DNA of 32,000 nt from Desulfosporosinus metallidurans (GTDB lineage Bacteria > Bacillota > Desulfitobacteriia > Desulfitobacteriales > Desulfitobacteriaceae), in NCBI RefSeq assembly GCF_001936615.1, contig NZ_MLBF01000025.1:17824-49823 (forward strand), given 5' to 3'. The notes under the pieces are model-generated. The model saw only the letters and a program-made list of their open reading frames with translations, made no database searches and was not told the DNA's origin. Positions 6,837 to 26,817 of this stretch are shown here, piece by piece. Position numbers and translations under genes: made by a program. Each line of letters begins with the position of its first letter. Positions within the stretch are counted from its first letter, which is position 1.

Positions 6837-7623
6837 TTGTGCCTCCTGCCGTAACACAAGCGTAAACTACATCGTATAATTGTATTTTTGGGGGCCTGTT
6901 ATCGTCAGATGTCATTACGCTTCTTGCAGTATCTTCGGCATTAGATTGTCTTGTTGGATACGCTTCAGCAAGTGATTTGTGTTGATTTACACCTGAAAGT
7001 AGGGTTTCCATTTTAAATAGTTGCTTCATGAAGTCAAACTTTTCTTTATCAAACTCTCCGACGGAAATACAATATAATGTCATTTTGGTTGCTAATAAAT
7101 CATTGCGCTTATAGTTGCTGACAAACGCTGAATTATTGAATCGCACATAACGGTGAGAATCTACTTTATATGTATCATAACCGTCGTAACCATCCATTAC
7201 AGCCTTAAACTCACTTGTGTCAACACCTTCAACGCCGCCCTTTACAATACGCAAGTAGCCACCAGCTACCCTAAAAAAAGTCGAAGAATTTTCAATGTCA
7301 TATATTAGGGTATCTTTAATTTCTGTAAGGTGCGTTTTCAATTCTTCAAACTCGGAAATTTCTGTTGAAGTAATAGTTGTTGAACTATCTCTCTTAATCA
7401 TAAACGATGCGTTTATTTTTCCAGAAAATAAAAAAGAAAGCCTGTCCCAAAAAGGCACACTCAAATTGACCTTTGCTTCAACTCCAACTTCTATAGCAAC
7501 TCCAGTTGAGGAAACAAAATCTGTTTGTGTTGTTTTTGACCCCTTGTTTTGTTCTTGCAAAATATTCCTTATTGTCTCTTTATCAAAATAAATTGTTTTA
7601 TTAATACTTTTTATATTGCTCAA
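6829..7623 (-). CDS. Hypothetical beta-rich protein, candidate DolA (DUF6414-like) partner of the ClpB-like ATPase
   Basis: 264-aa ORF with a TTG start 8 nt after GGAGGG, translationally coupled to the ATPase. The family call rests on gene pairing and size only, not on a motif I can name. Confidence 0.6.
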   Translation of the reverse strand: MSNIKSINKTIYFDKETIRNILQEQNKGSKTTQTDFVSSTGVAIEVGVEAKVNLSVPFWDRLSFLFSGKINASFMIKRDSSTTITSTEISEFEELKTHLTEIKDTLIYDIENSSTFFRVAGGYLRIVKGGVEGVDTSEFKAVMDGYDGYDTYKVDSHRYVRFNNSAFVSNYKRNDLLATKMTLYCISVGEFDKEKFDFMKQLFKMETLLSGVNQHKSLAEAYPTRQSNAEDTARSVMTSDDNRPPKIQLYDVVYACVTAGGTNG

Positions 7624-8376: not shown

Positions 8377-8940
8377 TTAACTGAATTTCCCCAATCCCTT
8401 TGTGCTTAGAGAAATCTTTTTTTTGACTTCGTCGATAGCAATTATCTCTGCCGGACAAATTTCTCCGACTTCAAATTCGGCATATATATCTCCAACGTAT
8501 CGATAGGCAATCTCAGAAATGTGTATCAGGCCCTGTATGGATTCATCAATGCCAGCAATGGCACCATAAGGCATGATATGAAGTATTTCTACATTGATGA
8601 TGTCACCAACAAAGTGCCGACCGCTATTGCTCAGAAAACTGTCGATATCCTCGTCAGCATCTTCCGGTTCGGATATGGCTTCAGGCTGAAAAATGTCAAG
8701 CTCACTAATGTCTTTTGCGGGTTGTCGATCTTTTAAGGCTTTTTCAAGCTCATCCTGCCTTCGGTTTACTTGCGATACAAAAGGATCTTTTAACCCAGAG
8801 TTTCTTAACCACGCGCATATTTCCAATCCATATTCAACTTTATCCGATGATTTTTCGTATTTGCTTAAGTTATAACATAATTTTAACGTTTGTACCAAAG
8901 CAACCCTGACATTGTGGAAAAGGGCCGCTTTCCCTTTCAA
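8377..8940 (-). CDS. S1 (OB-fold) nucleic-acid-binding domain protein; possibly a -1-frame extension of the upstream tnsD-like gene
   Basis: The C-terminal ~75 aa, VGDIINVEILHIMPYGAIAGIDESIQGLIHISEIA...KKISLSTK, match the S1 domain pattern. The only start is a TTG with no SD, overlapping the upstream stop (TTGA). Confidence 0.6.
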   Translation of the reverse strand: MKGKAALFHNVRVALVQTLKLCYNLSKYEKSSDKVEYGLEICAWLRNSGLKDPFVSQVNRRQDELEKALKDRQPAKDISELDIFQPEAISEPEDADEDIDSFLSNSGRHFVGDIINVEILHIMPYGAIAGIDESIQGLIHISEIAYRYVGDIYAEFEVGEICPAEIIAIDEVKKKISLSTKGLGKFS

Positions 8941-10058
8941 GAAAGGGGTGCGTTTTTTATGAAGTCGAACAGTTCTTTCCCATATTCATTAAATGTCATG
9001 CGATATTGCTGCTTTCTGAGTTTTTCTTCTTCATATTTCCTATACAGAATATCGAAGTTGATACAGTAACCGGTACCGAGAGCAAAAAAAGTAAGATAAT
9101 CGTTAGATGTTTTTTTATGGCTGCCTTTTGCGAAAAATTCCCTGATTGTATTTACAGCTTTTTCTTTTTCCAGCACCTCTTGAGACCATAACAAATAAAC
9201 ATAGAGAGTATAAATGTCGGAATCGTGAATAAAGAAATGTATATATTCTTCTATGACACTAATTGCAGCAACAGGATTTAGCCTTGAGTTTGATAGGTAA
9301 TCAGATAATCGCTTGAGTGCGCTTTTACGAAGATTGTACGAACACTTAGAGTTATTTAAGACACGACGATATTTCTCGACAGTCTCTTTTTCGTTGCTAA
9401 ACGCACGGCTTTTGTCAGCCTGAGTGAGCATGGCCTCTAATATATCACCCTCAATATCTTTCCCTCCGATGCTATTCAATAAATTTCTGACCGTATCCCG
9501 GAAATCTTGAGGATATTCGTTATATCTGGCCGTCATCATCTGGAGTAACTCTGCCGAGTAAACACGACCATAAACATCGTTGTTTCGTTCGATTACCTTT
9601 TGGTTGATGACTTCGTCAATGCTTGCCTCGAACTGATCTTTTTCCGGTATGACTTTTCCAAGAACATATTCCAATACGTCAAAATTGAACCGCAAATCGT
9701 TGTCTACCAGAATAGATATGGTTGCAAACAGATATTGTGCATTTGGACTTAGATAATTGAATATTCGCCCATATAAAAATTCCCGAGCGTCCTCGCTTGT
9801 TCTTATTCCTTCGATGAGGTCTTTTAAGAAATCCAATATAGAGCGTTTCTTCGCCGATTCGAATGTATAGTTAGCCTTCTGCTCAATCATCTTACGCTGC
9901 CTTGGTTTAACCATTAGTTCCTCGAAAACATGGTCGGGGGTTACGTTATAAAGGTAGCTCTCTAATATTATTGCGGCTACTCGCCAACCAATGGATACAA
10001 CCGTTTTTTGTTCTTGTTTATTTCCTTCGGATTCTGATCCTGTTTGGGAATAAATCAT
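8937..10058 (-). CDS. C-terminal portion of a TnsD-like protein (the listed ATG is internal; the frame is open upstream to 10139)
   Basis: Upstream of the listed Met the same frame reads ...KKTQYFFGEFTCPSCGMIYSQTG. The Met therefore lies inside a CxxC zinc-ribbon motif expected after the GPWSC..YCP motif of the preceding ORF. Confidence 0.7.
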   Translation of the reverse strand: MIYSQTGSESEGNKQEQKTVVSIGWRVAAIILESYLYNVTPDHVFEELMVKPRQRKMIEQKANYTFESAKKRSILDFLKDLIEGIRTSEDAREFLYGRIFNYLSPNAQYLFATISILVDNDLRFNFDVLEYVLGKVIPEKDQFEASIDEVINQKVIERNNDVYGRVYSAELLQMMTARYNEYPQDFRDTVRNLLNSIGGKDIEGDILEAMLTQADKSRAFSNEKETVEKYRRVLNNSKCSYNLRKSALKRLSDYLSNSRLNPVAAISVIEEYIHFFIHDSDIYTLYVYLLWSQEVLEKEKAVNTIREFFAKGSHKKTSNDYLTFFALGTGYCINFDILYRKYEEEKLRKQQYRMTFNEYGKELFDFIKNAPLS

Positions 10059-11158
10059 GCCACAGCTAGGACAAGTAAACTCTCCAAAAAAATATTGAGT
10101 TTTTTTGTTAAAACTACTTTTATACCCTGTATAACAAATCTATTATAGTCAGGGCAGTAAGTATTTTTACACGACCAAGGACCCGCACCGAAAGGTGAGG
10201 TAGTAAATTCACTAGATATAAAACCTTTGACGGATTGGGATAGATACTCCATGCCCAAAATATGTAATAGTTGATTTTTTGGACGCCCATTGAAATTCAG
10301 CACTTTTAAAGCAGTCCTATTTGACAGATAAATGGAATCAAGGCCTACAGTCTGTAACATTTCCTCGCTAAATAAACCTAAAAATCCTTTTGAAAACTTT
10401 GTATTTATGAACATCCCTTGGGATGCCAGGTACCCTTTATGTGAATATAATCTGAGCATTTTTTCTTTAAATATTTCAACGTTTAATTTGTCCACATTGT
10501 CAATAACAAATTTAACATCCCTTGCCAGTTGCTCGTTAAACAATTGAATCTGCGTGGGCGATTCTACTTCTACTCTGCGACCATCTCCTAGATAGTGCCC
10601 ACATGAACAAGTAGGTTCCATCAAAATAAATCGTCCAAAGCTATCTGACAATGGTGCACCACATTTGGGACAATGGGTTACTAGGTTAAAGCGATGAACT
10701 GGGCAAACAGTTACAAAATTGTACTGATGAACCCTATGTATATAACATTCCCTAAATCTTTCAAAGTCTTCTATTAAACAAGTTGGACAATAACGAACAA
10801 GGGTGGAGACTATTGGCGACAACAATCGAGTACCAATCTCCGATCTATCACTTGCACACCTAAATTCTACTAGGATCTTTTCGCGTTCATCGAGTGAAAG
10901 AAACGGAAGAAACAGCGCTAATAACGTGTGATTCGCTATGAAATAATCCGTAGTAAGAAAGAGTTTCTCAGGCAGCCTCTCAGCCAAATAATCTAAATTA
11001 CGAGGGAAATGCGCTAATCTATGGGTCTTAATATTAAAAAGTTCCTCAATTGTTTTTGTAATATTTAAGTTACCCGAACGAATGTGGTAACGATACGTCA
11101 AACTCCTGAAGTCTTCATCTTCATAAGGGGTAGGGAAAAAACCTAGTTCATTTTTCAT
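10055..11158 (-). CDS. tniQ: TniQ/TnsD-family transposition target-selector, N-terminal portion
   Basis: FFPTPYEDEDFRSLTYRYHIRSG, HTLLALFLPFLS..ERE, RYCPTCLIEDFERF and CPVHRFNLV run parallel to the Tn7 TnsD N-terminus as I recall it (FPVPYSNELIYSTIARAG.., EHTLFPLYAPFVGKERRD, RYCPDCV.., CPKHGALV). GPWSCKNTYCPDYN follows later. Confidence 0.85.
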   Translation of the reverse strand: MKNELGFFPTPYEDEDFRSLTYRYHIRSGNLNITKTIEELFNIKTHRLAHFPRNLDYLAERLPEKLFLTTDYFIANHTLLALFLPFLSLDEREKILVEFRCASDRSEIGTRLLSPIVSTLVRYCPTCLIEDFERFRECYIHRVHQYNFVTVCPVHRFNLVTHCPKCGAPLSDSFGRFILMEPTCSCGHYLGDGRRVEVESPTQIQLFNEQLARDVKFVIDNVDKLNVEIFKEKMLRLYSHKGYLASQGMFINTKFSKGFLGLFSEEMLQTVGLDSIYLSNRTALKVLNFNGRPKNQLLHILGMEYLSQSVKGFISSEFTTSPFGAGPWSCKNTYCPDYNRFVIQGIKVVLTKKLNIFLESLLVLAVA

Positions 11159-11340: not shown

Positions 11341-14300
11341 CTAATCAATAAAAAACATTGTTTGAAAGGGAACCTCGTAAACAACCCTCTTCCCTTCCAT
11401 TCGGTATACATAAACACGTTCTCTAATCGTACGATAGTCCTGTTCAATCAAATCCTTAGTTAGCTCATCTTCATTAGTTGTTAAAATGACATATCTACTG
11501 ACTCCCTCAGTATCTTCGCTTATAAAATCAATCAAACCATAGGCATCCATCATCTTTTGATAAAGCCTTCCATGGTGATCCTCATAATCCTTGATGATGC
11601 TTTCATAATCGTTTGGAATTAGACGACTATAGAGCGAATCCTCAGGAACTTGTACCTTAAATTGAGCCACTTTTTTCACGGGTCGTAATTGTATGCTGCG
11701 CTCTCGTTCGATTTCTTCAAGCCTTTCATTGCGACGCTCTTCGAGTTCTTCAACCTGACTGATTGTTTGGTTAATTAAAGCACTATTCCTATGATCGACA
11801 TCCTCCGCTTGATATTTTTGCAAACGCTCGTAAAGTGTTGTCATCTGGGTATCAAAAGAACGTCTTAGGAATTGACTTTTCCGATTCAGTAACTCTTCTC
11901 GACCAAGACGCATCGAGATCAACTGTAGACGCGCTTGTTTAATAACTTCCCCCTTAAATGTTCCATCTTCCAAACCAACTATCTCTGCGCCCCCCATCGT
12001 ATCACTAAACAACCAATAGGGAGACAAACGGATATAGTCACCATTGGCTCGTTTCGCTAGCAAGAGCAAGCTGCGTTCCAATTCTCGGCCTTGACCATTA
12101 ACAAAACTAATTTCATTCAACTCTACAATAAGAGATTCGCTCGCTTTAAACCGTATACTACAGGCCGGAATCGATGTTCGCTGTACATCCTGCTCGGCAT
12201 AGGCTAGGGCGAGCTTATAGAGAGGATGATCGTTTTGCAAAAGCAACAAATCTTTTGACTCTTTATCTTCCTTGACCGTAAACCGATAAGCTCCTTCGTC
12301 GTTAAAAATAATCTTATTTTTTCTTCCGAATTCTCGGACAGATTTTGGGATGCGATCCGTACGAATGATGGACCTATCCGCTGATATATTCAACTTCAGA
12401 CGTGTGGACTGTAATTGTTCTAAGGCAAACTGTCCGTAAACACGTGCAGGCATACTTTCCAGGGATAACTCATTGTATGAACGCCTCACACCGGGGAAAT
12501 CAAAACTTTGATCATCGAGCCGCTCTTCTCGAGCTTGTTCCAGTAGACGTCGATGCTCTTCTGATAAACGTTTTTCCATCTGAGCGATCAGATCATCCAG
12601 ATTTTCACGACCTGAAATGGCCCCTTCCATGAGGCTTGCCAGATCAATTTCCTCTTCTTCCAGAACTTCGCCTATGAAATCATAGACAAGCTCCTGACCT
12701 AGATCCACGCGCATCTGCTCAAGCTTCTCGAGTAAGCATCTCATGACTTCCCCTTCGCGAGTGTTCACCGCTACAAGGTTAAAGACAAAGACTTCATTCC
12801 TTTGACCAATCCGATGAATACGCCCCATTCGTTGTTCAAGTCTGTTTGGATTCCAAGGGACATCATAATTAATCATCTGATTACAAAATTGCAGGTTGAT
12901 TGATTCTCCACCAGCATCGGTTGCTAGCATGATCTGAACATCATTGCGGAACTTTTCAATCTCTTCTCGACGTCGATCCATAGAAAAGTCTCCGATAATT
13001 TTCGCCACCGTTGGTACCCGTTCAAGTAAGCGCTGTTCTAGATAATTCAGGGTATCTTTGGACTCCGAGAAAATGAGAATTTTTTCCCCTTTGGCCAAAA
13101 GGGCCTTTGGTCCAAACAAAGTGGATTCTAGCTCTAAATATTTTCGTTCGACTTCCAGTATCCGGACCCCATTGGCCTTCCGAATTAAACGCGTCAATTC
13201 ATCAATTTCCAACTGCAATTCATGGAGGTCAAGTGCATCAGTTTGACCCTCTGCTGCGCCCTCCAGTTCATCTTGTTCTTCGGCTGTGGCATTTTCATAA
13301 TCCTCGATGGAGAACGCCTGAACTTGCATTAATTCTTTTCCCAATGCCTCTTCGAGCCGTTCTTTCCTTCGTACTAAGGATAAGTAAATCGCCTCAATTG
13401 AAGAGCAAAGCCTGCGTTGCAAGAGCATCATCGCAAATACCGTACTATGATTGTTATTCTTTTTGGCCCGGTTAAAATGTTCACTGACATAAGCCGTGAC
13501 ATCGTTATATAACTCTAATTCATCCTTGGACAAATTAAAGGCTAAGGTTTGGGTGGTCCGTTTAGGAAATAAGGGGGTACCCTCAAAGGTGACCATGGAC
13601 TCCTTCAATCGTCGGATGATAAAGGGATTGCTTTTCTCATATAATGAGTCGCTAGTGTTGAGGTTGGAAAAAAGGTCATGGTCTATGAGGTTCATTAAGT
13701 GGCGAAAGTTCTCCTTATCACCCTTGTGCGGGGTAGCCGTCAACAGCAAACAATGTTCTATATCTCGCAACAGCACTTCCCCTAGCTGATACATCTTGGT
13801 TCGTTGTATTTTCCTCCTTTTTACCCCATGGGTGTAGGCCGCCATCTTATGCGCTTCATCTACAATGATCAGGTCAAACTTAGAACGGATCAGATAGTTC
13901 TTGACATCCTCACGCATTGCCCAGTAAAGGGAGGCCAGACATTTATCGTGTTGATCAAACGGATTCAGCACTCCGGATTCACGCAGTGTTGTGCGAGAAA
14001 TAATCTTGAACTCCTCGCCAAACTTCTCCTTTAACTCTTCTTGCCATTGAGGGAGCACCAGCGGTGGCACAAGAATCAGGATTCGCTCGACACTTTGCCT
14101 GGCCAATAATTCTCGAAGAAGCATCCCCGCCATAATTGTTTTCCCTGCGCCTGGATCATCCGCCAGCAAGAATCTCACTTGTGGGGTTTGCAACATGCGG
14201 CTATATACCGCTTCAATTTGATGGGGCAAGGGGATAATCCGTTGGTTCCCTCGCACCCTTGACTTAGAATAGCGTTCATCCACCTTGAGGACATGGTAGC

Positions 14301-14526
14301 GCAAGTAATGCACAATTCGATCCATGCTAAAAACACTATTAACGTTTTGTTGTAATGGCTCCAAGGACTCAATCTGTTGTAACTCCAAATAGGTTTCATA
14401 ATACTCTCTCGTCTGGCGACCAATGGCTTCTACTAAAAAGAGGGTCTGATCTATGGATTCACATTTCTTGATTTCTACGATCTCCGCCCAGTAGGGGCCT
14501 TGGATGATATCTCCAACTTTAATCAA
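11341..14526 (-). CDS. brxHII: SNF2-family (COG0553-type) helicase, BrxHII-like
   Basis: Motif I LLADDPGAGKT, motif II IIVDEAHKM, motif III LLLTATPHKG and motif VI QRMGRIHRIGQ. TTG start after GGGGGAAGG. Same strand as the BREX core and downstream of it. Confidence 0.8.
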   Translation of the reverse strand: MIKVGDIIQGPYWAEIVEIKKCESIDQTLFLVEAIGRQTREYYETYLELQQIESLEPLQQNVNSVFSMDRIVHYLRYHVLKVDERYSKSRVRGNQRIIPLPHQIEAVYSRMLQTPQVRFLLADDPGAGKTIMAGMLLRELLARQSVERILILVPPLVLPQWQEELKEKFGEEFKIISRTTLRESGVLNPFDQHDKCLASLYWAMREDVKNYLIRSKFDLIIVDEAHKMAAYTHGVKRRKIQRTKMYQLGEVLLRDIEHCLLLTATPHKGDKENFRHLMNLIDHDLFSNLNTSDSLYEKSNPFIIRRLKESMVTFEGTPLFPKRTTQTLAFNLSKDELELYNDVTAYVSEHFNRAKKNNNHSTVFAMMLLQRRLCSSIEAIYLSLVRRKERLEEALGKELMQVQAFSIEDYENATAEEQDELEGAAEGQTDALDLHELQLEIDELTRLIRKANGVRILEVERKYLELESTLFGPKALLAKGEKILIFSESKDTLNYLEQRLLERVPTVAKIIGDFSMDRRREEIEKFRNDVQIMLATDAGGESINLQFCNQMINYDVPWNPNRLEQRMGRIHRIGQRNEVFVFNLVAVNTREGEVMRCLLEKLEQMRVDLGQELVYDFIGEVLEEEEIDLASLMEGAISGRENLDDLIAQMEKRLSEEHRRLLEQAREERLDDQSFDFPGVRRSYNELSLESMPARVYGQFALEQLQSTRLKLNISADRSIIRTDRIPKSVREFGRKNKIIFNDEGAYRFTVKEDKESKDLLLLQNDHPLYKLALAYAEQDVQRTSIPACSIRFKASESLIVELNEISFVNGQGRELERSLLLLAKRANGDYIRLSPYWLFSDTMGGAEIVGLEDGTFKGEVIKQARLQLISMRLGREELLNRKSQFLRRSFDTQMTTLYERLQKYQAEDVDHRNSALINQTISQVEELEERRNERLEEIERERSIQLRPVKKVAQFKVQVPEDSLYSRLIPNDYESIIKDYEDHHGRLYQKMMDAYGLIDFISEDTEGVSRYVILTTNEDELTKDLIEQDYRTIRERVYVYRMEGKRVVYEVPFQTMFFID

Positions 14527-14660
14527 CGATCCTTCCCCCTAGTCACCACTGCAATTAGATTAAACTGCACCCTATTATCACCCCGAAACTCAAAGAATGC
14601 ATAATGTGCAACGAGCATCATAGCCTTCTTTTCACAAACGAATCTTTCATCCAGAGAGGA

Positions 14661-15272
14661 TTATGCATTATCTGCCTTCATACTGGCAGTGTAATAGTTA
14701 TGGCGGCGATGGCTTTCAATATTTTTAACAAAAACATTACAATTTAGCCAAGACAATTTCTTTTTAATTTTTTCACGCAAATTGGTCAAAATTGCCTTTT
14801 GAGGCCTTGTGTTTGATGCAAAATCTCCCTCTAAAAACAAAACAACTTTGATTTTGTTTGTTCCCAAAGATATATTATTCGTCATGATAAAATCAGAATA
14901 CTTCTTCAATACCCCACTATGAGTTTGTAATTGTGGCTGAGAATGTGCACCACACAAACATGCCAATGTCATCGCGACTTTTTTAGGAATTTCAATATCG
15001 AGGCTATCTCTGTCCTCAGTATCAACCATTGTGGCGGTTCTATCACGTTTACTGTTGTCCGTTGAAATGCGCCATAGATTTTCACCTTCGTGTCCAGCAC
15101 AATTTTTGACTTCTATTAGCATAAGAGTATCCTCCGATTTCAGAATGAAATCTACTCCCTTGCCGCCTGGCAAATTTTTAAAGTATTTTTTGTAATATCC
15201 AGTATCATCAAATTTATCTACGGTGAGATGATCGTCAAATTCAAAGACGATGCCGCTTTCATCAAACCTCAT
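14661..15272 (-). CDS. PD-(D/E)xK-type nuclease-fold protein (predicted), partner of the upstream ABC-type ATPase
   Basis: GKGVDFIL-(9 aa)-LMLIEVKN gives a D...ExK arrangement. I prefer the ATG at 15272 (AGAGG 7 nt upstream), which gives 203 aa. It overlaps the ATPase stop by 11 nt. Confidence 0.6.
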   Translation of the reverse strand: MRFDESGIVFEFDDHLTVDKFDDTGYYKKYFKNLPGGKGVDFILKSEDTLMLIEVKNCAGHEGENLWRISTDNSKRDRTATMVDTEDRDSLDIEIPKKVAMTLACLCGAHSQPQLQTHSGVLKKYSDFIMTNNISLGTNKIKVVLFLEGDFASNTRPQKAILTNLREKIKKKLSWLNCNVFVKNIESHRRHNYYTASMKADNA

Positions 15273-16332
15273 AGAATAACCTCTGTTCTCTATCATAAAG
15301 ATGATCAAATTCTTGCATAATAGCATTATGTTCTAAATCCAACAATGTAGGACCGGATTCGAAAAGGATATTATCATTTTCCTTATAAAATGAAATGAAT
15401 TTTACATCAATATTTTCTAGCATGGGCTGGTTTGGCTTATACTCAGAAATCATGGAAAAGCACTGCTGTAGGAAGTAATCATGAGTCGCAATAAAAACTT
15501 GAACGCCCATGTTTGCCAGTACTACTAAAGCTTGTACTATTGGTTCTATCATTTTGGGGTTCATATTTGTCTCAGGTTCATCCCAAAAAAGAACTGAGTT
15601 TTTGTTTAAACTTCCGGAGAGGATCAAATATATAATAGTTGATAGCTTACGATATCCTTCGGAAACTAACCCCATTTCAAACTCGCCTTGACCATCTACT
15701 CTAAGGTAAAATTTCTTGCCTTTTTGAATTATCGATCCATTGATTATATTATTAAAGCTCTCCAATACTTTGTTTTGCTCAGCCGTATTGGGTCCCCTCT
15801 TTAAAGGCCTATCAAGTAGAAGAGCCAAATCATAATAAGTTTCTTCAAAAGCAATACGGTATTCGTAGTATAGAGCAGTGAAATTCTCTGTAGCCGAGAT
15901 TATTTCTTTAGGCGGAAGATATATTGGCTCAACAGATTTCACAAATCCTCTTAAGAGTTGATTGATATCCAGATGCTTTTCTTGATTTGAACTAAAACCA
16001 AACTCAAGTTTCGTATTTTCGTTGACTGTTATTGCTATATTAGTGCTTTTGCTTCCCTGAATGCGTCTTACTAAACGTCCAATTTTATCATCATCCGGTC
16101 TAAAAACACCTTGAAGCTTTGAAACTAGAAGCTCTTCATTCTGTTCCTTTGTTAACTCTGACTTAGCTTTGTTGGCATTGCTAATTGACTTAGTTGCCGA
16201 ATACAACAGTTTTAACATGGCCGTCTTACCAGTGCTGTTTTCACCGCTAATAATATTAATATTCTTAGAAAAATCGATATTAAGGGAATTGAAAAGCATG
16301 AAATCATTAAGAACTAATTTGCTAATATACAT
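15262..16332 (-). CDS. ABC-type/AAA_21-like ATPase (the Septu PtuA / PARIS AriA class of ATPase)
   Basis: Walker A ISGENSTGKT, signature-like VSEGYRKLS, Walker B/D-loop VLFWDEPETNMNP and H-loop IATHD. The N-terminus MYISKLVLNDF is typical for this class. I prefer the ATG at 16332 (GAGGTG 6 nt upstream) over 16356. Confidence 0.8.
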   Translation of the reverse strand: MYISKLVLNDFMLFNSLNIDFSKNINIISGENSTGKTAMLKLLYSATKSISNANKAKSELTKEQNEELLVSKLQGVFRPDDDKIGRLVRRIQGSKSTNIAITVNENTKLEFGFSSNQEKHLDINQLLRGFVKSVEPIYLPPKEIISATENFTALYYEYRIAFEETYYDLALLLDRPLKRGPNTAEQNKVLESFNNIINGSIIQKGKKFYLRVDGQGEFEMGLVSEGYRKLSTIIYLILSGSLNKNSVLFWDEPETNMNPKMIEPIVQALVVLANMGVQVFIATHDYFLQQCFSMISEYKPNQPMLENIDVKFISFYKENDNILFESGPTLLDLEHNAIMQEFDHLYDREQRLFYEV

Positions 16333-16441
16333 TTCCCACACCTCTTCCTTATTCATAGATTATTCCCTAATTTTTCAGATTTGATAATGGAGCAAACATC
16401 CTGCATGAATTTCACCTTAACAGCACGCAGATATTACCATT

Positions 16442-16470
16442 ATTATACAGATCATATTACAACCCTGCAA
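16442..16470 (-). promoter_or_regulatory. Near-consensus sigma-A-type promoter: TTGCAG - 17 nt - TATAAT
   Basis: In minus sense the -35 is at 16470-16465 and the -10 at 16447-16442. It lies in the 223-nt gap after the pglZ stop, about 110 nt upstream of the ATPase start. Confidence 0.5.
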
Positions 16471-16579
16471 TCGAATCTGATGAAAATCAAAATTTTACGG
16501 AGGACCTTCTTTATATTGAAAGCCAATATGCTTTCGCTTTCATTTAATTCAGATCTACAATCCGTCCCCCTATCCACTT

Positions 16580-19111
16580 TTAATATAGAGTTTGGTACAT
16601 CCGCAGTGTGAACACTTCATCCCGATAAAGTTCCACCTTACCCGCCCGCATCGTCTCAATCCTCAAGTGGCATGTTTCCCCCAGTGCATAGTGGCTTTCC
16701 GCTAAGGTAAATACAACCGATACATTCCGTTCCATCGCCTCACCCGTCAAATCAAACGTATAAATCACTTCATTAGAAATTCTCTCGTCATCCTTATAGA
16801 AAGCCATCTTAACCTGACGAGGTAATACATCGCTGGTAATCCTTTGTTCTTGGTAGAAAGTTACTTGTTGCCGGTAGTTAGTAATAATCTTATCAGGAGT
16901 TGCTAGGTTAACGTTGACTAGTTCGGCATCGGCTGTGCGACGATAATCGATCAAGGGAATCACCACTTCCTGGGGCATGGCTCCACCATGAATGAATTGC
17001 AACCCGCCTGCTCCGATAAAACGATTTAGCCCTTTAGCGATCACTGCCTCACAATTAAGGGATACTGCTTCTACCGGAAGGCGAATGGCTCCTTCCGGAA
17101 CGGTTAAGCCCTTTCCTAAAGCAAAACGCCGGTTTTTATCATAGATTTCGCCTGTGACCGCCTTGACCTTGGCGTCCGCTTCGACCTTGTTATATTGAAA
17201 TAGGAAGCCGTGATCAGAGGTGATAAAGATTCGCTTAGCCTGAAGGCGTGAAAGTTTGTCGACGGCATCTTTTAAGACCACAATCGTTCGTTCGACCGCA
17301 TCATAGGTCTCCCGTTCGGTTTTAGTTGTATCTCCCGTTGCGTCAATCACGTCATGGTACAAATAAACCAAGCGTTTTCGCTTGAACTTCTCATCGGCCA
17401 CGCTGGTGGACCAATCCATGAAATCCCCCAAACGATAGCTTACCGACTCCGGACAATGCGCTTGCAAAACCATCTCGCGATTGGCCAAACCACGGGTGGA
17501 CTTGCCATCGACATAGACCGTTCCACCTTCATCAATGCGCATTTCACGGTGGGGCAAGAGGCACGCCATACCCAATTGGGTATAACTTGGTAAACTAACC
17601 TGCATGGGTTGAATCGTTGCCTCGCCATTGATGCGTTGATTGAGCTGTTCTCTTAAATCTTGCCCCACTTCATACCGCAAGGCATCGGAGATGATCACGA
17701 AAATCTTCGTCTGTTCCTTATTTATAATAGGGCGGATTTGTTCGGTGTAAAATCGTTCTTGTTTCAATATTTTACCCTTATGTTCAATAGTCCCCTCACT
17801 TAACCAATCATTGGTTTGATTCGCCAGATGGAGAAGATAAACGTTTTCATACCAATTGGTCAGTTGTTCTATTAAAGGGTGCAACAACTCTCTTTGTTCT
17901 AGGTGCCAGTAGTTTTGCATCAAGTGTCGGTAAGCTTGGTCAATTTTGTACCATTCACTGGCGTAGAGGCTTAAGAAATTCCCCCACGATGCCGAATTAG
18001 AAGCATATTTTTTGAGCAGTGTTTTTAGCTCAGTAAGTTTTACTACGTCACTCAGCACATTATAATAACCGGCGAGTTTCTCTTTTTTTCCCCAGTGGGA
18101 CTGCCTGTGATAATTAATCCGCTCACTCCAAGCACTTAGATCAGCCGTTTGATGCATGATCTGTTCGATCATTTGCTCGATCAGTAACCCCTCTATCGAG
18201 GGAAACGTCGTGGTGAGATCATACCCCTCGAGCGACTTTGCTCTGAGTTGCTCAGGGATCCTAAACTTGGATTCAAAATCTCTAATATATCCCTCTAACT
18301 GCTCTACCTTCTGCTTTTCTTCCCGAAACCAGTCGTCAATAAAGAGTGCACAGGTATTCGGTAAGATCGATTTCAAGCTTTCCATTAAAGGGGGATCAAT
18401 GCGCGCTGCGCTGGCGAAATGTTGATAAATCAAGCTTTCCATCAATTCTAGTAAAGGACTACTATCCCCCTCGATCACAATTCCAAAGTGCGGTAGGATC
18501 AACTCCCACATGCGCTTTAAGGAGAAGAACTTGGCAACCTTTTTTAGGCCCTCATTGTAAGCAGAATCAAGCCCTAAATGTAAGAGCTGTTTGGTTAAGT
18601 CAGGAATGGTCATCGAGGGGGAGCCGCTAAGTACCGCGAGCATAGCGATTTCGACCGTCTTCTGATCTGAATGGGCCGGTAACATGCGTTTTAACTTGTG
18701 CTTACGTTCTTTACCTTTAAAGAAGGCCGCATAACGTTCAACCAGGGGGCGGATTTCCTGATCGTCTACCTGCAGTTCCGCGACTACCATGGCCACTTCA
18801 TCCGACTTAAACTCTGCTCCGTAAAGCAGGATATCCAACAAGTAATTCTTTTCATCATGGGGTCGCGGAAAAGAGGCATAGAGAACAAACGAAGTTTGAG
18901 GATGTTTAATTTCGATGTCGTATTTCAGCCGAAAGAAATTATTTTGGGTTATGCGACGCACTTCAATTTCTTCTGGCGCAAATTCTTGTTCTAACTCAGT
19001 AAAGTCCATCTGTTCACTGGCATCATACCAGAATAGTATAGCCCGTTGTTTAGAGTCTTTCTCTTGGGTAATTTTTTCGCGCAAAGACTGTAGCAAATCC
19101 ATTTTTCTCAA
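16580..19111 (-). CDS. pglZ: BREX PglZ, alkaline-phosphatase-superfamily protein
   Basis: 843 aa with FVIISDALRYEVG and IFITSDHGFLF metal-site-like motifs, positioned directly after pglX. The start is either TTG 19111 or ATG 19102. Confidence 0.85.
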   Translation of the reverse strand: MRKMDLLQSLREKITQEKDSKQRAILFWYDASEQMDFTELEQEFAPEEIEVRRITQNNFFRLKYDIEIKHPQTSFVLYASFPRPHDEKNYLLDILLYGAEFKSDEVAMVVAELQVDDQEIRPLVERYAAFFKGKERKHKLKRMLPAHSDQKTVEIAMLAVLSGSPSMTIPDLTKQLLHLGLDSAYNEGLKKVAKFFSLKRMWELILPHFGIVIEGDSSPLLELMESLIYQHFASAARIDPPLMESLKSILPNTCALFIDDWFREEKQKVEQLEGYIRDFESKFRIPEQLRAKSLEGYDLTTTFPSIEGLLIEQMIEQIMHQTADLSAWSERINYHRQSHWGKKEKLAGYYNVLSDVVKLTELKTLLKKYASNSASWGNFLSLYASEWYKIDQAYRHLMQNYWHLEQRELLHPLIEQLTNWYENVYLLHLANQTNDWLSEGTIEHKGKILKQERFYTEQIRPIINKEQTKIFVIISDALRYEVGQDLREQLNQRINGEATIQPMQVSLPSYTQLGMACLLPHREMRIDEGGTVYVDGKSTRGLANREMVLQAHCPESVSYRLGDFMDWSTSVADEKFKRKRLVYLYHDVIDATGDTTKTERETYDAVERTIVVLKDAVDKLSRLQAKRIFITSDHGFLFQYNKVEADAKVKAVTGEIYDKNRRFALGKGLTVPEGAIRLPVEAVSLNCEAVIAKGLNRFIGAGGLQFIHGGAMPQEVVIPLIDYRRTADAELVNVNLATPDKIITNYRQQVTFYQEQRITSDVLPRQVKMAFYKDDERISNEVIYTFDLTGEAMERNVSVVFTLAESHYALGETCHLRIETMRAGKVELYRDEVFTLRMYQTLY

Positions 19112-19141: not shown

Positions 19142-22100
19142 TTAGATTCTGGCAAGTACCTTCTGCAGCTTCGCATAATTTACTTTCACCCCATCGTCTA
19201 ACTCTAAAGCAATCTGAGCATTGGCATACTCCGCTAGGACCTTATCAAATTCCATTAGCTCCTCGATTCGCTTGCGAAAGAGTTCTTTCTTCTTCTCAAA
19301 GCCCCGCTTCTCTAGGGCACTTAAGGATGGGTTAGCTAAACGCATTTCCAAAGTATCAATCTCATTGCGATACTTAGCTTGGATTTCTTGCAATTGTTCG
19401 AAACGAATCGTGGCCAGGGTATCCGGTTGATAGCGGTGAAGGTAGATAAGCGTGCGTAAACCTTTCGCATTGCCGGAATCAACCAGCCAGTAAATGGGAC
19501 GCTTCTGGTAGATTTGAGTATGGTCTCTAAAGAACTCGTCCAAGAAATAGCGTCGAATTCTCTCCTCAGGTGATTCATTATTTCTCTGGGTAAGTGATTC
19601 AGCGATCCAAGCCAGATTTTCCTCGACGGTGTCTTCACTGAAAGTGACAGAGAGAAATGTTTTTAGGCGGGAGATAATATCATTTTCAAAATAGGCGTCA
19701 TCTGTTAAGAGGATCAGACCATACCTATTCGGAGTGAATTTGTGATAGTTTGACGCGTCCCATTCCCCGCCAACATAGGCCAGACCCTCGAGATCGAGTG
19801 AGTATCTACCCATGACGCAGCCGACAAAGTAGGATAAGAACGATTTAGTGTCACGCAGGCGATCAGCTTTGCGAACAGTTACTTCTTCGTCTAGGACTTC
19901 AGGGGTGAGTTCGTCTTGGAGACCGTATAGGTCGATGAAGATGCGGTTTAGGGATTCTTCGTTGGATTTGAGTTGGGAGAATCTGTTTTCTGCTTCGTTA
20001 ACCCATTCCGAATAAGCATCCGAGAGTGTGGAAATTTTCTCTTGATAGCACAACCACGGATGATTTATAAAATCCCATGATGTTTCTGAGGAATTCCAAT
20101 CATCACCAGAGATACTTATGGATGAAAGAGATAGTTTATTAATATCTTCTTTTTCTAGCGGATTTATAATAGGTATGGATGCTATATTACCCACTTGAAA
20201 GTTCAATGTTGGGTTAACCATAGACAAAAAATAATAAGATAATTTACTTGTGAGAAGAGCAAGATAAAATGGAAACTCACCATTCTGAAGGAAAATACTT
20301 GATCCTCCTACGTCGAATAAAAAGCCCATGGGCGAATAACGCACACCGAAATTAGAAGAACTTACAAAAGACCACGTAATACATTCTCTAAAATAAAACG
20401 AAATATTTTTTATTGTTCTGGTTGGGCTTTTGTAAAGCTTCGTTGCATATTTCATTACTTCCTGCCCATCATTTTCCCAATTTACAATGTACTCCTGATT
20501 TCCATACCATTTTCTAAATGACCCGCCCTTATTATAAGGGAACCACTTTCTCTCACTTCTAAGTGCCTCATTAGAATCTGAGAAGCCAAATCCTACTTTT
20601 CTTATATCTACTTCAAACCACAATCGCAAAAATCGCCCATTGTCAGACGTGGCCATTCCTTGTCTTGGCTTTGCAATTTCATCTAATTTCGGATTTTCTA
20701 CAAATATTCTCCGTACTTTTTTAGATGCCCAATAAGCAATGGGTGAACCAGGAATGTCATGAAATTCCTTTTGTGTTGTTACATACTCATGTTTTCTTGC
20801 TATAAAAGCCTCTTCTTTGTCTTGGGCATTTGTATATTCTAGTAATCTAGAATACCTCGTTTCGGCTTCTCCTAAAACCACGCTGCGCAATACAAAGGTC
20901 GTACTCTGTACCACTTCACCACCAATTTCCTCAAATGCCCGCGGACCAAGGTGAATCATTGACAATATCGTTTCTTCTTTTAATATCTTTAAACGCAAAT
21001 TCTCGTAACTACTTAAAAACATCCAAGAATGCTGATTAATCGCTGCATGAAATCCGTTTTGTTTCGTGAACTCAAGGCAGCGTTCCATAAATACAGCGAA
21101 TAAATCAGCCTTGCTATCTTTATAATTCTCTTGCAGAAACTCTGACAACTTTGAGTTCATTCCTTTAGTACCCATATAGGGCGGGTTAGTAATGACAATT
21201 TCGTATTGGTCTTCAAGCGCCTTCGCTTGCCTTAATAGTTGTTCAAGTCTCAACAATAGCTTTCTATCGTCGCTCATAAATAAGCTCTGGTCAATCTGGG
21301 TCTTTAACCACTCCACTTTACCGAAATACTTATTGAAATCCATCTGACTGGGTCTCAAAATACTACCATAATTTTTGGCATCAATAAATACCCGTAATAA
21401 CATCTTTAATTGCTCTGCTTCTACATCATTTTCCGCAATAAGAGAAACAACTTCCTTCGTTGATAAGCCATTCGATTCTTGAATCGAAATAATATTCATC
21501 ATTGGAGGATTGCGGAAAATTCGTCTTGATTTCGCTCTCGCTTTCATGAAGAGCGCAAAAGATGCAAGTTGTGCCGCACGATCATCAATATCAATTCCGA
21601 ATAAGTTCTTTTCCAAAATAAGAGTTGGGATATCACTCACGACATAGCCCCGCTCTTCATATATGGCATAGAGCAAATCAAATGCGTAAACAAGAATATG
21701 TCCTGATCCACAGGCAGGGTCTAGCAAGCGAATATTTTCAGGTGATAGGTTAGGATTTCTCAGCTCTTCTAGCTGTTTATTCACTCCTTCTGATTGTTCA
21801 ACTGGTTCCACATAATAGCGCATTCCCGACTTTAGCGACGATCCAGGATGTGATTCTAACCAAAGGGTCCCCAGAGAATTCTCGACCATATAGCGTACAA
21901 TCCAGTTGGGTGTGAAGAGTTGTGTTGCTGCAGGGATTTCTTCTTTTCTGATTTTGATGTTTTTCTTTAATCTGGCGAAAACATCATCCTTCTTCTCAGA
22001 AATATAGTACTGATACAACCACCCAATCACTTCGACTTCCCGAAAACTGGCAGTCAGCTCCTCATCCTTCACCAGCTTATTAATCACAGACTCACTGTCT

Positions 22101-22642
22101 AACAAGAAATCAGGCAAGAGCAATTCCGTAAAGTCGTCTATCCTCTCGAACATAAACGGTAAAATAGGTTGCAGAGCATTACATTGGGCAATAAATAACT
22201 TGCGATAAGCTTCTTCATGTTTACCCGCTTCAAGCAATTGGCTGATGGCGATTTTATCAACCTCTAACTCCATACCGGCATAGTGGAGTACAATGTCAGG
22301 CTCTACTTTCCCCGTACTGCTAGAGAGCACATTCACCCGCTCCGGGAGATACTCATGAATCTCCATATACCGGATGGCAATAATACGATTAAACCAAATA
22401 TAGGCTGCTTCTTCTAGCAATTGTTCATATCCTTTTTGGGTATATTGATCCCGCAACACGTCGAATGTTCCTTCCACAGTGAGGGGATAAGCAAGCTTAT
22501 TAACCATAAGTTTCTCACCTTGGCGCTCTGATTTCAAATTATTTTCGGCATCAATCCCGAAGAGCTGTGCTCTTAAAGACACTTTATGAATTAACTCTTT
22601 GCGCGCCGATACGGCAAACGATTTGAGTGCTGCTTTATTCAT
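19142..22642 (-). CDS. pglX: BREX PglX, N6-adenine DNA methyltransferase
   Basis: SAM motif LLDPACGSGHIL and catalytic IVITNPPYMG. MNKAALKSFAVSARKEL is a typical PglX N-terminus, so I prefer the ATG at 22642 (GGAGGG upstream) over the listed TTG at 22660. Confidence 0.9.
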   Translation of the reverse strand: MNKAALKSFAVSARKELIHKVSLRAQLFGIDAENNLKSERQGEKLMVNKLAYPLTVEGTFDVLRDQYTQKGYEQLLEEAAYIWFNRIIAIRYMEIHEYLPERVNVLSSSTGKVEPDIVLHYAGMELEVDKIAISQLLEAGKHEEAYRKLFIAQCNALQPILPFMFERIDDFTELLLPDFLLDSESVINKLVKDEELTASFREVEVIGWLYQYYISEKKDDVFARLKKNIKIRKEEIPAATQLFTPNWIVRYMVENSLGTLWLESHPGSSLKSGMRYYVEPVEQSEGVNKQLEELRNPNLSPENIRLLDPACGSGHILVYAFDLLYAIYEERGYVVSDIPTLILEKNLFGIDIDDRAAQLASFALFMKARAKSRRIFRNPPMMNIISIQESNGLSTKEVVSLIAENDVEAEQLKMLLRVFIDAKNYGSILRPSQMDFNKYFGKVEWLKTQIDQSLFMSDDRKLLLRLEQLLRQAKALEDQYEIVITNPPYMGTKGMNSKLSEFLQENYKDSKADLFAVFMERCLEFTKQNGFHAAINQHSWMFLSSYENLRLKILKEETILSMIHLGPRAFEEIGGEVVQSTTFVLRSVVLGEAETRYSRLLEYTNAQDKEEAFIARKHEYVTTQKEFHDIPGSPIAYWASKKVRRIFVENPKLDEIAKPRQGMATSDNGRFLRLWFEVDIRKVGFGFSDSNEALRSERKWFPYNKGGSFRKWYGNQEYIVNWENDGQEVMKYATKLYKSPTRTIKNISFYFRECITWSFVSSSNFGVRYSPMGFLFDVGGSSIFLQNGEFPFYLALLTSKLSYYFLSMVNPTLNFQVGNIASIPIINPLEKEDINKLSLSSISISGDDWNSSETSWDFINHPWLCYQEKISTLSDAYSEWVNEAENRFSQLKSNEESLNRIFIDLYGLQDELTPEVLDEEVTVRKADRLRDTKSFLSYFVGCVMGRYSLDLEGLAYVGGEWDASNYHKFTPNRYGLILLTDDAYFENDIISRLKTFLSVTFSEDTVEENLAWIAESLTQRNNESPEERIRRYFLDEFFRDHTQIYQKRPIYWLVDSGNAKGLRTLIYLHRYQPDTLATIRFEQLQEIQAKYRNEIDTLEMRLANPSLSALEKRGFEKKKELFRKRIEELMEFDKVLAEYANAQIALELDDGVKVNYAKLQKVLARI

Positions 22643-22669
22643 CACTTGTATTCCCTCCAAGCTCTCTAC

Positions 22670-25600
22670 CTAATCACTCTTCTTAAGATTACTCACTTTC
22701 AATTGTTCCATTAAACTAGTGCGCAGGTGTTTAATAGCATCGTCTAGTTCATCTAACGTCGTGATCTGCTGTCTCGAATTAAAAAAGAGATTATAGAGGT
22801 CTTTCTCTCGCAAGGCCCTGGTGGGCTTTTCATAGACGCCTGTTGGCTGATAAGGGGCCTTTTCTTTAATCTCTAATTTCTGGAGAGCTTCCATCTTACT
22901 AGCCTTCTTAGCAAAATGTTTCACTTGTTCATTGCACTCCAGTTGAAGAGATCGGATGGTTAACATGCTTGTTTCCTTGACAATACGCTCTTTGAGTTGT
23001 TCTAGGGTCCTTTGTCCTTCACTGAGCATCACTAGAATCGGTTCATTGTCTACATAATAATCAATCAATTCCTGATTTTGAGCTAAGGTGCCCTCCACCT
23101 GCTCCCCAATTCTTTGGCGGGCGGTTTCCACATGCTCCGAGAGCTTAGTTTTGAGCTGTTCTTGAAGCAGCGGCAAATTTGGAATCTGTTGGTAAGGTTT
23201 AGGGCTCGTTAGAATTGTATCGATTTGCAGTTTTAGATAATTAATATCCCGATCATTAATCAGCGAGATATCCTGCTCGAATTTCTTAAGCAGTTCGACC
23301 GAACTATCAAAATATTCGATGGGCTTGCGCTCATAAAAGGAGTTTAGGGTATTAAGTTCCTCAAGCCACTCATCCACTTGGTCCTCTGCTTGGATAAATT
23401 GACTCACAAGGTCTTCATCATCACTAAGGCTCAGTAAAGGATTTGTCCCCATTTTTATGCGACTAATTTCCCCTTCACCTGGGTAGGCATACCCCGTGGC
23501 GCTCTTTCTACGTTCTTCAATTTTGCCCAGCGGTTTTATGAACTTATCGTTTAAGGCCTCTTTGATAGCACTGCCCATTTCCTCGTAAGAATCTCCAATG
23601 GCATCGTTACCAAAATACTCGCGGAAAATTGCAAAGAGTTTTCTACGCGCTTCTGAACCAGGCACTTTTACAGCGCTCACCAAGATGCGGTCCCGTTCCT
23701 GTTGCTTACTTAATCGATCATAAAAGTTGGGATGGGTTGGTGTGAATGAGTCACCTGCATACGTTAACTTGACTTTGACATCATGATACAAGGCCAAGAC
23801 TAGGGCAATCGTGTCATATTCGTTCCAGCCAAATGGAACGGCACTGAATTTATCGATGATGCCTTTTAAGGCGACCTTTTCGTGAGAATGTCCCTTCCCT
23901 TCCATGTACAGTTTTACTTCTTCATAAGCATTTCCATTTTCCATGCCTTCAATCGTGGCCTGTAATCCGCCGGTTACCATGGAAATCCAGGCCTGCTTAT
24001 AATCTTTATAGGTAATCGACTGATCAAGATAAGTCAGCTTTGTGTACGTGTTACGCACTAACATGTCCAAAGCACCCGTCAGCTTGTTCTCAAAGGTGCC
24101 GTTAAAATTCCGTTCTTGGCTTTGGATAAAAAACCGAGATTTCTCGCAAGCTCGTCCCATCAGGTGCTCTGCTTTCTTCTCAAACCCCTCAATTTGATTG
24201 ATCTTGGCATCATAAATTCGTTGCTGACTGGGAGTGGTACTTGAGGATTTTTTGCGTGTTGTATAGCTAAGGATCTGTTTGACATATTTTAGGGCACCCT
24301 CAGCTTCGGCAATCCGCTCAGGATCCAAACAAACGGCTAAGACCCCTTCATTAGATTTTAAAGCCGCTTCACTATCACTGATCTGCCCACCATAAACCTG
24401 TACAGTTAGAGAATGGGTCATTGTAGTACGCACATAATTATCAAATCGTTTATTATAGTCAAATTCCTTTTTGTCATAGCTAATCTTCACCTTGGTATAG
24501 ATCTTATCGAAAAACATCTTCCCTAGGAGCTCTTTGAGCATCCCGGGATCGACGGGTTCATTATGTATCTCACGATTGATTTCCTGCTCTTCATCGGATA
24601 GGAAGGAGTAAGTCTGATCAGCATGTTGCTCAATATACCTCGTCTGTTCTAAGCGAGACAACGCTTCCTTGACCCCGTTTTCCAGAGGTAAACGTTCGTA
24701 GTGAAGGTTGGGCATCAGCAGAGTTGCTACATTGTTCGCCGTTGCTTTGATATCCTCAATACCCTTGATCATATAAAGAACGATTAACACTTCCACATCA
24801 AAATCCTGCAAACCTTCGTGATTGTGCGCCAGATCCTCGGCTCGAACAATCGTACTAGTAATGGAGGAATCTAAGAAATTGCGGATTGATGGATAGAAAT
24901 CGGCCATCGTGACTAAGTGCGTGGTATCTTGCTCGGCCTTCAGGAGGCAGGCTTCTTGGAAGGCTTTGAGCAGGGAACGTTCCCCATGCGCAAGATGCGC
25001 CCCACCTTCTCCTTGGGTTCGAATCTTATGAAAGACCTCTTTGAGCAACTCTACCTGATAGGGAACGAAAGGATAGAGTTCCACGAACTCCAGATTCGTT
25101 CGATAAGCCATCCGCAATTGAGTGGTACCCGGCTCAAAGGATAAGCGATTGCGGATCATTTGCTCTTCTTGGTCATAGCGAAGGGTCAAACTTGCGGCAG
25201 CCGTTTCAGTTTTTTCAAGCAAGCGGCGTTTAAGAACCTCATCCGTATTGGCACTCGATAAATTGATACGCGTGACAAAGCGTCCCTGAATCTTGGAAAA
25301 ATCATCCGTACTTTTTAAATTAATGGCAGATTCAATTTTTTCTTGGGAGGTGACGATCACCCAAGCTTGTCCCATGGTCGCATTGCCAATTCTTTCGACC
25401 ACAGTTTGTAAGTTAAGCATTAAGTCCGAATCTGTTCCGATATACTGACCAACTTCATCTGCTAGGAAGACCAGACGGTAATCGGGACCCCGATTTTGAC
25501 AATAGTTTGCTATTAAATCCGCCAGCTTATCTGCTGTCATCTCCAAGGAATCCTTAGCTGACGTAAGAAATTGTTTCGCTGATTCTTCGTCAACTCCCAG

Positions 25601-26262: not shown

Positions 26263-26817
26263 TTAGATTCTCGATAATTGGTATTGGTCTTCGTTATTGA
26301 GTTTATGAAATAAGCACAGATTAAGGCCCGTAAATTGCCCTGGGTAAAATAAAATGATCGTCCTTCGATAGGCGTAGGTTGATAATATCTTCAACAGTTT
26401 ACTCGATCGCATCAAGGGGAAAGCATTCCCCACTCCAGTGATCAAGATGAGCTCAGCATCCCCCGCAGCCTTGATAAAGGATTCGACTAACGTCTGTTCA
26501 TTAACTAAGACCGTTTCCGTGGACTCGACTAAGCCCGTAAGTCCCTCTTCATCACTAATCTCTAGGAGATCCTCTATGTCCCCCTCAAAGAGATTCAGAA
26601 AGAACTCAAAGAGATTAATAGTCTGAATCTTCATCGGCGATTGCTCAACAAGCACTTTTAAATATGTACGTACTTTAAGCTCATCCTCAGCAGGGTAATC
26701 AAATACATAATGGGGAATTTCGCTTCCTATTCCCTTGGGGGTGGTAAAACCCTGCTCGTGTATTCGAATTTTAACGTGGTTTAAGCGTTCATAAGTATCC
26801 GCAATCAATTCATGCAC
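26263..26817 (-). CDS. brxB: BREX BrxB (DUF1788-like)
   Basis: 184 aa, with a GTG start abutting the brxA stop. Assigned by size and conserved position in the brxA-brxB-brxC order. Confidence 0.7.
   Translation of the reverse strand: MHELIADTYERLNHVKIRIHEQGFTTPKGIGSEIPHYVFDYPAEDELKVRTYLKVLVEQSPMKIQTINLFEFFLNLFEGDIEDLLEISDEEGLTGLVESTETVLVNEQTLVESFIKAAGDAELILITGVGNAFPLMRSSKLLKILSTYAYRRTIILFYPGQFTGLNLCLFHKLNNEDQYQLSRI

Follow-up and report, generated by a model that had tools for sequence, protein, structure and literature searches.

The 32,000-nucleotide (nt) stretch of Desulfosporosinus metallidurans DNA analysed here (the window, whose positions serve as coordinates throughout) carries an operon of the bacteriophage exclusion (BREX) type, in which a gene for an ATPase and a gene for a protein of 203 amino acids (aa) lie between pglZ and a SNF2-family helicase gene. 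This pair is very probably a member of the already described two-gene anti-phage system HEC-02, acquired horizontally as a cassette of about 2 kb within the BREX operon. An earlier note on the same DNA, made from the sequence alone, had presented the pair as its top candidate for an undescribed two-gene defence module and could place it in no described system. A search against Pfam and PADLOC profiles, which the note had proposed, revealed that both proteins match one named system over their full length (HEC-02A, E=2.6e-112; HEC-02B, E=1.6e-85), and HEC-02 has been published as precisely such an ATPase and NERD pair, so that, by the note's own refuting condition, neither claim can be maintained.

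Assignment of the gene pair to HEC-02

HEC-02 (Hma-embedded candidate 02) was described by Payne, Hughes, Fineran & Jackson (bioRxiv 2024, doi 10.1101/2024.01.29.577857) and is included in PADLOC-DB v2. The system reported by these authors consists of an ATP-binding cassette (ABC) ATPase and a NERD-domain protein from the PD-(D/E)xK superfamily; they found it within Hma systems and, beyond these, widely distributed. The tested representative, a pair from Dickeya dianthicola, lowers phage plaquing in Escherichia coli from a plasmid alone, and both genes are needed for this effect. According to Table S8 of the same work, a cassette embedded in BREX, DISARM (defence island system associated with restriction-modification) or type I restriction-modification systems was 'incorporated into the HEC-02 model'. 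Of the features of HEC-02, the window pair shows a HEC-02A match, a HEC-02B match, adjacent genes of one strand in the order A then B, and both the D...ExK and the Walker motifs.

The first gene, HEC-02A (15262-16332, minus strand), encodes an ABC-type (AAA_21/AAA_15) ATPase of 356 aa. Read from its first ATG, the open reading frame (ORF) covers 15262-16356 and 364 aa; the upstream ATG at 16356 is specific to the window. Alignment of the upstream regions indicated that the start kept in relatives is the ATG at 16332 (MYISK...), with AAGGAAGAGGTG immediately upstream, and in-frame stops precede this conserved start in L078, one of the comparison loci that were retrieved (L-numbers). The translation contains a Walker A motif (G30-ENSTG-K36-T37), an ABC signature (S224-E-G), a Walker B motif (D251-E252) and an H-loop (H284). 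The earlier note had read a protein of about 356 aa with GENSTGKT, VSEGYRKLS, FWDEPE and ATHD motifs and had placed it in the ABC/AAA_21 class; the motifs are all found in the translation, and Pfam agrees on the class (AAA_21, 3.6e-16; AAA_15, 1.9e-13). The match to the PADLOC HEC-02A profile (PDLC04213, 374 bits) aligns residues 1-351 with positions 1-331 of 337, and the next-best PADLOC families are far weaker, with AriA at 5e-19 followed by PD-T4-4_A, NsnB, AbiLi and PtuA. Identity to the tested Dickeya HEC-02A amounts to 35% over 284 aa (E=3e-55). The nearest solved structures are those of PtuA and AriA, with alignments confined to about 50 N-terminal residues; PtuA is the closest by sequence (E about 6e-5).

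The second gene, HEC-02B (14661-15272, minus strand), is read from the ATG at 15272 (MRFDESG), is preceded by an AGAGG ribosome-binding site, and encodes a DUF6661 / NERD-like PD-(D/E)xK protein of 203 aa, the putative nuclease effector. It matches the PADLOC HEC-02B profile (PDLC04228) over positions 1-194 of 199. In Pfam it is recognised as DUF6661 (4.7e-45), together with a weak, sub-threshold match to NERD (0.0078), and the identical (100%) D. metallidurans protein is labelled at NCBI simply as 'DUF6661 family protein'. This identity makes the host D. metallidurans and not a Bacillus. No defence family was assigned to either protein by an NCBIfam search.

The candidate catalytic residues D41 (in GVD41), E54 and K56 (in E54-V-K56) are invariant in 26 homologues that share 38-85% identity, in agreement with the small PD-(D/E)xK protein with GVDFIL...LIEVK that had been proposed from the sequence. 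The invariant positions in these homologues include E5, D22, K38-G-V-D41, E54, K56, C58, E62, D92, E94 and K98. The tested Dickeya HEC-02B is 25% identical (E=1e-11) and its D...ExK residues align with D41, E54 and K56; relative to it, the window protein carries an insert of about 30 aa after the ExK strand. Modelling with AlphaFold2, followed by a Foldseek comparison, had also been proposed for this protein. The model is confident (predicted local distance difference test score 91.1, predicted template modelling score 0.89), but no PDB entry was matched below 1e-3; the top of the list consists mostly of PD-(D/E)xK nucleases, with SfsA (0.027), Hjc resolvases, Hachiman HamA, Can2, Cdn1 and EcoT38I as the best fold matches, all non-significant. 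A profile of the HEC-02B family found no match among PDB sequences. The predicted nuclease fold of HEC-02B is thus supported by the motifs, by the weak profile and fold matches and by the published comparison.

A search of 1.84 billion cluster representatives with the HEC-02B profile retrieved 1123 relatives at E<=1e-3, including 353 at E<=1e-10. Among the best 150 listed, nearly all are small stand-alone proteins of less than about 220 aa, many of them shorter fragments. Because both window proteins match the HEC-02 hidden Markov models over their full length, the long DUF6661-type variant already falls within the PADLOC model set for HEC-02. The subfamily, with its invariant extra residues (C58, E62, R68, N73, D92/E94/K98) and its insert of about 30 aa, could differ from Dickeya-type HEC-02B in its substrate or in its mode of activation.

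Several points weigh against this reading of the pair. The description of HEC-02 is a preprint, no peer-reviewed version of which was found in a literature search; the same search, directed at a renamed or mechanistically characterised HEC-02, returned only that 2024 preprint and papers citing PADLOC output. Protection against phages is known only from the distant Dickeya homologue (25-35% identity) in E. coli, and from no Firmicute. The nuclease activity of HEC-02B is putative in the tested Dickeya system as well, and the division of labour between a sensor and an effector is inferred by analogy only. The pair extends HEC-02 to sulfate-reducing and gut Clostridia.

Insertion into the BREX operon and occurrence elsewhere

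Every gene of the region lies on the minus strand. The BREX genes upstream of the pair are brxA (26818-27411), brxB (26263-26817), brxC (22670-26242) and pglX (19142-22660), all identified by Pfam and PADLOC, followed by pglZ (16580-19111; 843 aa; Pfam PglZ 6.3e-50, PADLOC PglZ 1.8e-208). Downstream of the pair lies the gene for the SNF2-family helicase (11341-14526; 1061 aa), a DrmD/BrxH-like protein with Pfam SNF2-rel_dom and Helicase_C domains that is matched by PADLOC DrmD (1169 bits) and also by HmaA and BrxHI/HII. The placement of the pair between pglZ and the BREX helicase in the earlier note was therefore accurate, as was its gap of 223 nt after the pglZ stop when counted to the ATG at 16356; to the conserved ATG at 16332 the gap is 247 nt. 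The overlap of 11 nt between the HEC-02A stop and the HEC-02B ORF that it gave was likewise recovered, and overlaps of 11-14 nt are found in the relatives L076, L078 and L080. HEC-02A and HEC-02B form a translationally coupled and co-inherited pair.

Ten metagenomic loci with helicases 50-61% identical to that of the window have the order (BrxB-)BrxC-PglX-PglZ-helicase without the pair, with a gap of about 25-130 nt between pglZ and the helicase gene. Since pglZ directly precedes the helicase gene in these ten loci, the SNF2 helicase belongs to the conserved gene set of this BREX subtype, and the operon of the window is interrupted by 2.05 kb. The guanine plus cytosine content of the pair is 34-36%; the corresponding values are 42-50% in pglZ and 43-46% in the helicase gene. 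The pair does not belong to the BREX core: the ten loci of the same gene order are devoid of it and its position varies where it is present. These comparisons bear out the view of the earlier note that an accessory defence is embedded here, and on sequence grounds the pair is a horizontally acquired insert.

The borders of the insert are marked by an imperfect direct repeat of 25 nt. Its upstream copy (16553-16577) immediately follows the pglZ stop, and its downstream copy (14522-14546) spans the ribosome-binding site (GGGGGAAGGA) and the TTG start of the helicase gene. The two copies are identical at 20 of 25 positions and 2031 nt apart; 8 of 2000 shuffles gave a local alignment score as high as theirs. 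The upstream copy, which resembles the ribosome-binding site and start of the helicase gene, probably remains from the junction at which pglZ and the helicase gene originally met. The repeat suggests that insertion produced a second copy of the region of translation initiation of the helicase, so that the helicase would still be expressed. With identifiable borders, uninterrupted sister loci and a stand-alone copy 85% identical, the insert offers a natural example of 'guilt by embedding', and such borders and sister loci could help to study the movement of defence cassettes into BREX operons.

A survey of such pairs outside BREX had been called for, and most copies were indeed found to occur apart from it. 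A total of 75 genomic loci with HEC-02B relatives, mostly from Lachnospiraceae and other Clostridia, were retrieved. A HEC-02A homologue lies directly upstream and on the same strand in 72 of the 73 loci that have sequence upstream of the HEC-02B gene; the ATPase matches are only partial in L006, L060, L071 and L074. Recognisable BREX genes are present within 10 kb in only seven of the 75 loci, about 90% of the copies being devoid of any, and the flanks of the non-BREX copies are heterogeneous and consist mostly of housekeeping genes. Where the pair is embedded in BREX its position varies, at the PglX/PglZ junction in L004, L007 and L022, between BrxC and PglX in L044 and upstream of BrxA in L043. 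In L080, a metagenomic contig, it is flanked by the methylase and SNF2 helicase genes of a type-3-like BREX.

The closest relatives occur in three different contexts, one being the BREX locus of L080. In Desulfofarcimen acetoxidans (L076) the pair stands alone beside an IS605 OrfB/TnpB gene and a DDE transposase fragment (L076 6421-10844), and in a metagenome-assembled genome of Syntrophomonas (L078) it shares an island with a Gabija-like OLD-TOPRIM ATPase and a UvrD helicase, downstream of a TniQ/TnsD gene (L078 1-10603). A DUF3800 gene is also present in the L078 island. Both neighbourhoods hint at routes of cassette movement. A conserved cassette block (14657-16372, minus strand), delimited by blastn and by alignment of upstream regions, is homologous to these stand-alone copies in Peptococcaceae/Syntrophomonas genomes: identity to L076 is 85% over 1693 nt (16372-14680) and identity to L078 is 78% (16349-14657). 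Only about 40 nt of 5' leader (TTAGGGAATAAT...AAGGAAGAGGTG) are shared with the stand-alone copies. No HEC-02B homologue was found among the plasmids of PLSDB. The sole match in phage collections is an unannotated 6.7-kb fragment named 'Bacteriophage sp.', which came from a virome of human faeces and encodes a 44%-identical HEC-02B homologue (MT839135.1 2482-3069).

Expression, possible mechanism and competing readings

The pair had been described in the earlier note as self-promoted from a near-consensus TTGCAG-17-TATAAT sequence. This sequence is present on the minus strand of the gap (16442-16470, read 16470->16442), but it is not near-consensus, the -10 element being perfect and the -35 element matching TTGACA at only 3 of 6 positions, and it is absent from the list given by a consensus promoter scan of the window. 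The pattern TTG-N20-TATAAT has two occurrences in the window where 0.55 would be expected, and two or more were obtained in 12 of 100 shuffles. In addition, the sequence falls outside the block homologous to stand-alone copies (16372-14680). The scan and the upstream alignment point to an alternative promoter-like site, TTATCA-17-AATAAT (9/12; 16359-16387, read 16387->16359, minus strand), the -10 element of which is the conserved TTAGGGAATAAT within the leader kept with the stand-alone copies. A putative promoter within the 223-nt gap is plausible, and the site first proposed, with its weak pattern statistic and its position outside the conserved cassette, stays a candidate; self-promotion of the pair was therefore not accepted as a finding. 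In other BREX-embedded copies, about 25-55 nt separate the start of the ATPase gene from the BREX gene before it; a promoter of its own is therefore not a general feature of embedded copies.

This close spacing, which implies co-transcription in several BREX loci, is one argument for regarding the pair as an effector or regulator that depends on BREX and has no autonomous activity. The orientation of the pair is also that of the BREX genes, and a terminator scan of the minus strand between the cassette and the helicase gene detected none. Such dependence is nevertheless very unlikely in view of the ten BREX loci of the same gene order without the pair, of the predominance of copies among heterogeneous housekeeping genes with no BREX gene within 10 kb, of the close relatives that stand alone (L076) or in a non-BREX island (L078), and of the activity of the tested HEC-02 alone on a plasmid.

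It is also highly improbable that the pair serves cassette maintenance, as a toxin-antitoxin-like or addiction module, or DNA repair, as a RecF/SbcCD-like pair. The Pfam family AAA_21 is named 'putative AbiEii toxin', the ATPase has AAA_21 and SMC_N matches and RecF-like N-terminal similarity, and the IS605 and DDE transposase genes adjoin the pair in L076. Yet the NCBIfam scores for RecF, SMC and Rad50 are far below the cut-offs and the 356-aa protein has no coiled-coil inserts, while a homologue has a documented defence phenotype and the pair is recurrently placed in defence operons and islands.

The partial ATPase matches in four loci suggest decay within the family, but there is little chance that the cassette of the window is an inactive, decaying passenger: both ORFs are intact and of full length relative to the profiles, and the ATPase motifs, D41/E54/K56, the ribosome-binding sites and the coupling overlap are all preserved. 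Finally, a genuinely new two-gene defence system is hardly credible, despite the bare DUF6661 label at NCBI, the absence of an NCBIfam defence model and of a solved structure, and a HEC-02B that is 25% identical to the tested protein and carries the 30-aa insert, given full-length HEC-02 matches at E=1e-85 to 1e-112 and a published architecture of an ABC ATPase with a NERD/PD-(D/E)xK protein embedded in defence operons.

With the pair taken as HEC-02, a mode of action may be proposed by analogy with PARIS (phage anti-restriction-induced system), Septu and Gabija/OLD. The HEC-02A ATPase would be the infection sensor or regulator and would bind a phage-derived trigger or aberrant nucleic acid. 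ATP binding or hydrolysis by HEC-02A would then release or activate the small nuclease HEC-02B, which would cut nucleic acid so that the phage is stopped or the infected cell is killed. Embedding in BREX would provide co-transcription and co-inheritance, and possibly a back-up when BREX is evaded.

Among the systems compared, the closest in organisation is the published HEC-02 itself, in which an ABC ATPase gene is followed on the same strand by an overlapping or abutting gene for a small NERD-like PD-(D/E)xK protein, either embedded in defence operons or alone. The window pair differs from the tested one in its low identity (35% and 25% for the two proteins), in a HEC-02B that belongs to the longer DUF6661 subfamily, in a host system that is BREX and not Hma, and in a host organism that is a sulfate-reducing Firmicute.

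PARIS likewise combines an AAA_21-class ATPase (AriA) with a small nuclease (AriB) and is sometimes embedded in BREX. By analogy it probably provides the model for the mechanism: the ATPase scaffold would hold the nuclease until a phage trigger is met. AriB is a DUF4435/TOPRIM protein, whereas the window effector is of the PD-(D/E)xK/NERD type. PARIS was rejected as an identity for the pair: the AriA match (5e-19) falls short of that to HEC-02A (2.6e-112) by about 90 orders of magnitude, and the partner has no AriB, TOPRIM or DUF4435 match.

Septu and the retron-associated PtuAB also pair an ABC ATPase (PtuA) with a separate nuclease, but the PtuB effector is an HNH protein and PtuA is larger (about 450-550 aa). 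Septu was rejected, the PtuA matches (2e-13) being confined to the N-terminal P-loop and no HNH protein being present. In Gabija GajA, the OLD family and HEC-04, anti-phage defence also rests on an ABC ATPase and a nuclease; there the nuclease is a fused TOPRIM domain, with an additional GajB helicase in Gabija, in contrast to the separate PD-(D/E)xK protein of the window. Gabija and OLD were rejected, the 356-aa ATPase having no TOPRIM domain and its GajA/Old matches (1e-9 to 1e-10) being partial. BrxU (GmrSD-type) and PrrC provide examples of an autonomous defence gene nested in the same orientation within a BREX or type I restriction-modification operon, with proteins and mechanisms unrelated to HEC-02.

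PARIS is triggered by Ocr. A comparable role as a guard is conceivable for BREX-embedded HEC-02, whose ATPase would respond to phage factors that counter BREX or restriction, DNA mimics for example, the insertion between pglZ and the helicase gene having been selected for functional coupling in addition to co-inheritance; we regard this as unlikely.

The mechanism of HEC-02 and its possible coupling with BREX are matters of the whole family and not of this locus specifically. For the trigger, the substrate and the role of ATP, any biochemically well-behaved orthologue would be useful. The practical value of the locus is limited, and it holds nothing surprising for a specialist of phage defence.

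Other genes of the window

The BREX helicase gene is followed, about 4 kb further downstream, by a complete Dodola system (5685-7623, minus strand). It consists of DolA (6829-7623; PADLOC 1.4e-50) and of the AAA ATPase DolB (5685-6857; 4.6e-97). BREX, HEC-02 and Dodola together thus make the window a defence island.

Directly after the BREX helicase gene, a gene codes for a TniQ/TnsD-domain protein of 367 aa (10055-11158, minus strand). It is overlapped by 4 nt by an ORF of 373 aa without annotation (8937-10058, minus strand), and the product of the third gene after the helicase (8377-8940, minus strand) is 187 aa long and has an S1 RNA-binding domain at its C-terminus. A TniQ/TnsD gene also borders the HEC-02 island in L078. 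No TnsA, TnsB or TnsC was seen in the window, and the gene group may be either what is left of a Tn7-like element or a defence module that contains TniQ.

Near the beginning of the window lies a group II intron (386-2139, minus strand). Its ORF for a reverse transcriptase/maturase (386-1816) matches RVT_1 (1e-43) and GIIM (5e-17), and group-II D1-D4 RNA domains from Rfam were recognised at 1840-1927 and 1968-2139. At the other end, three ORFs in the same orientation lie upstream of brxA (27776-31535, minus strand) and encode proteins of 139 aa, 964 aa (28243-31137) and 171 aa (27776-28291), for which no Pfam, PADLOC or NCBIfam match was obtained; a 964-aa protein without family match thus stands at the head of the BREX operon.

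The BREX SNF2 helicase scores best against the DrmD models of DISARM, with the PADLOC score given above and an NCBIfam DrmD score of 364 bits, below the cut-off of 610. Around some 25 metagenomic homologues of this helicase at 44-52% identity (L090-L118), no BREX genes were detectable nearby. From these sequence relationships, the helicase clade seems to be common to BREX and to other systems, perhaps of the DISARM or Hma-like kind.

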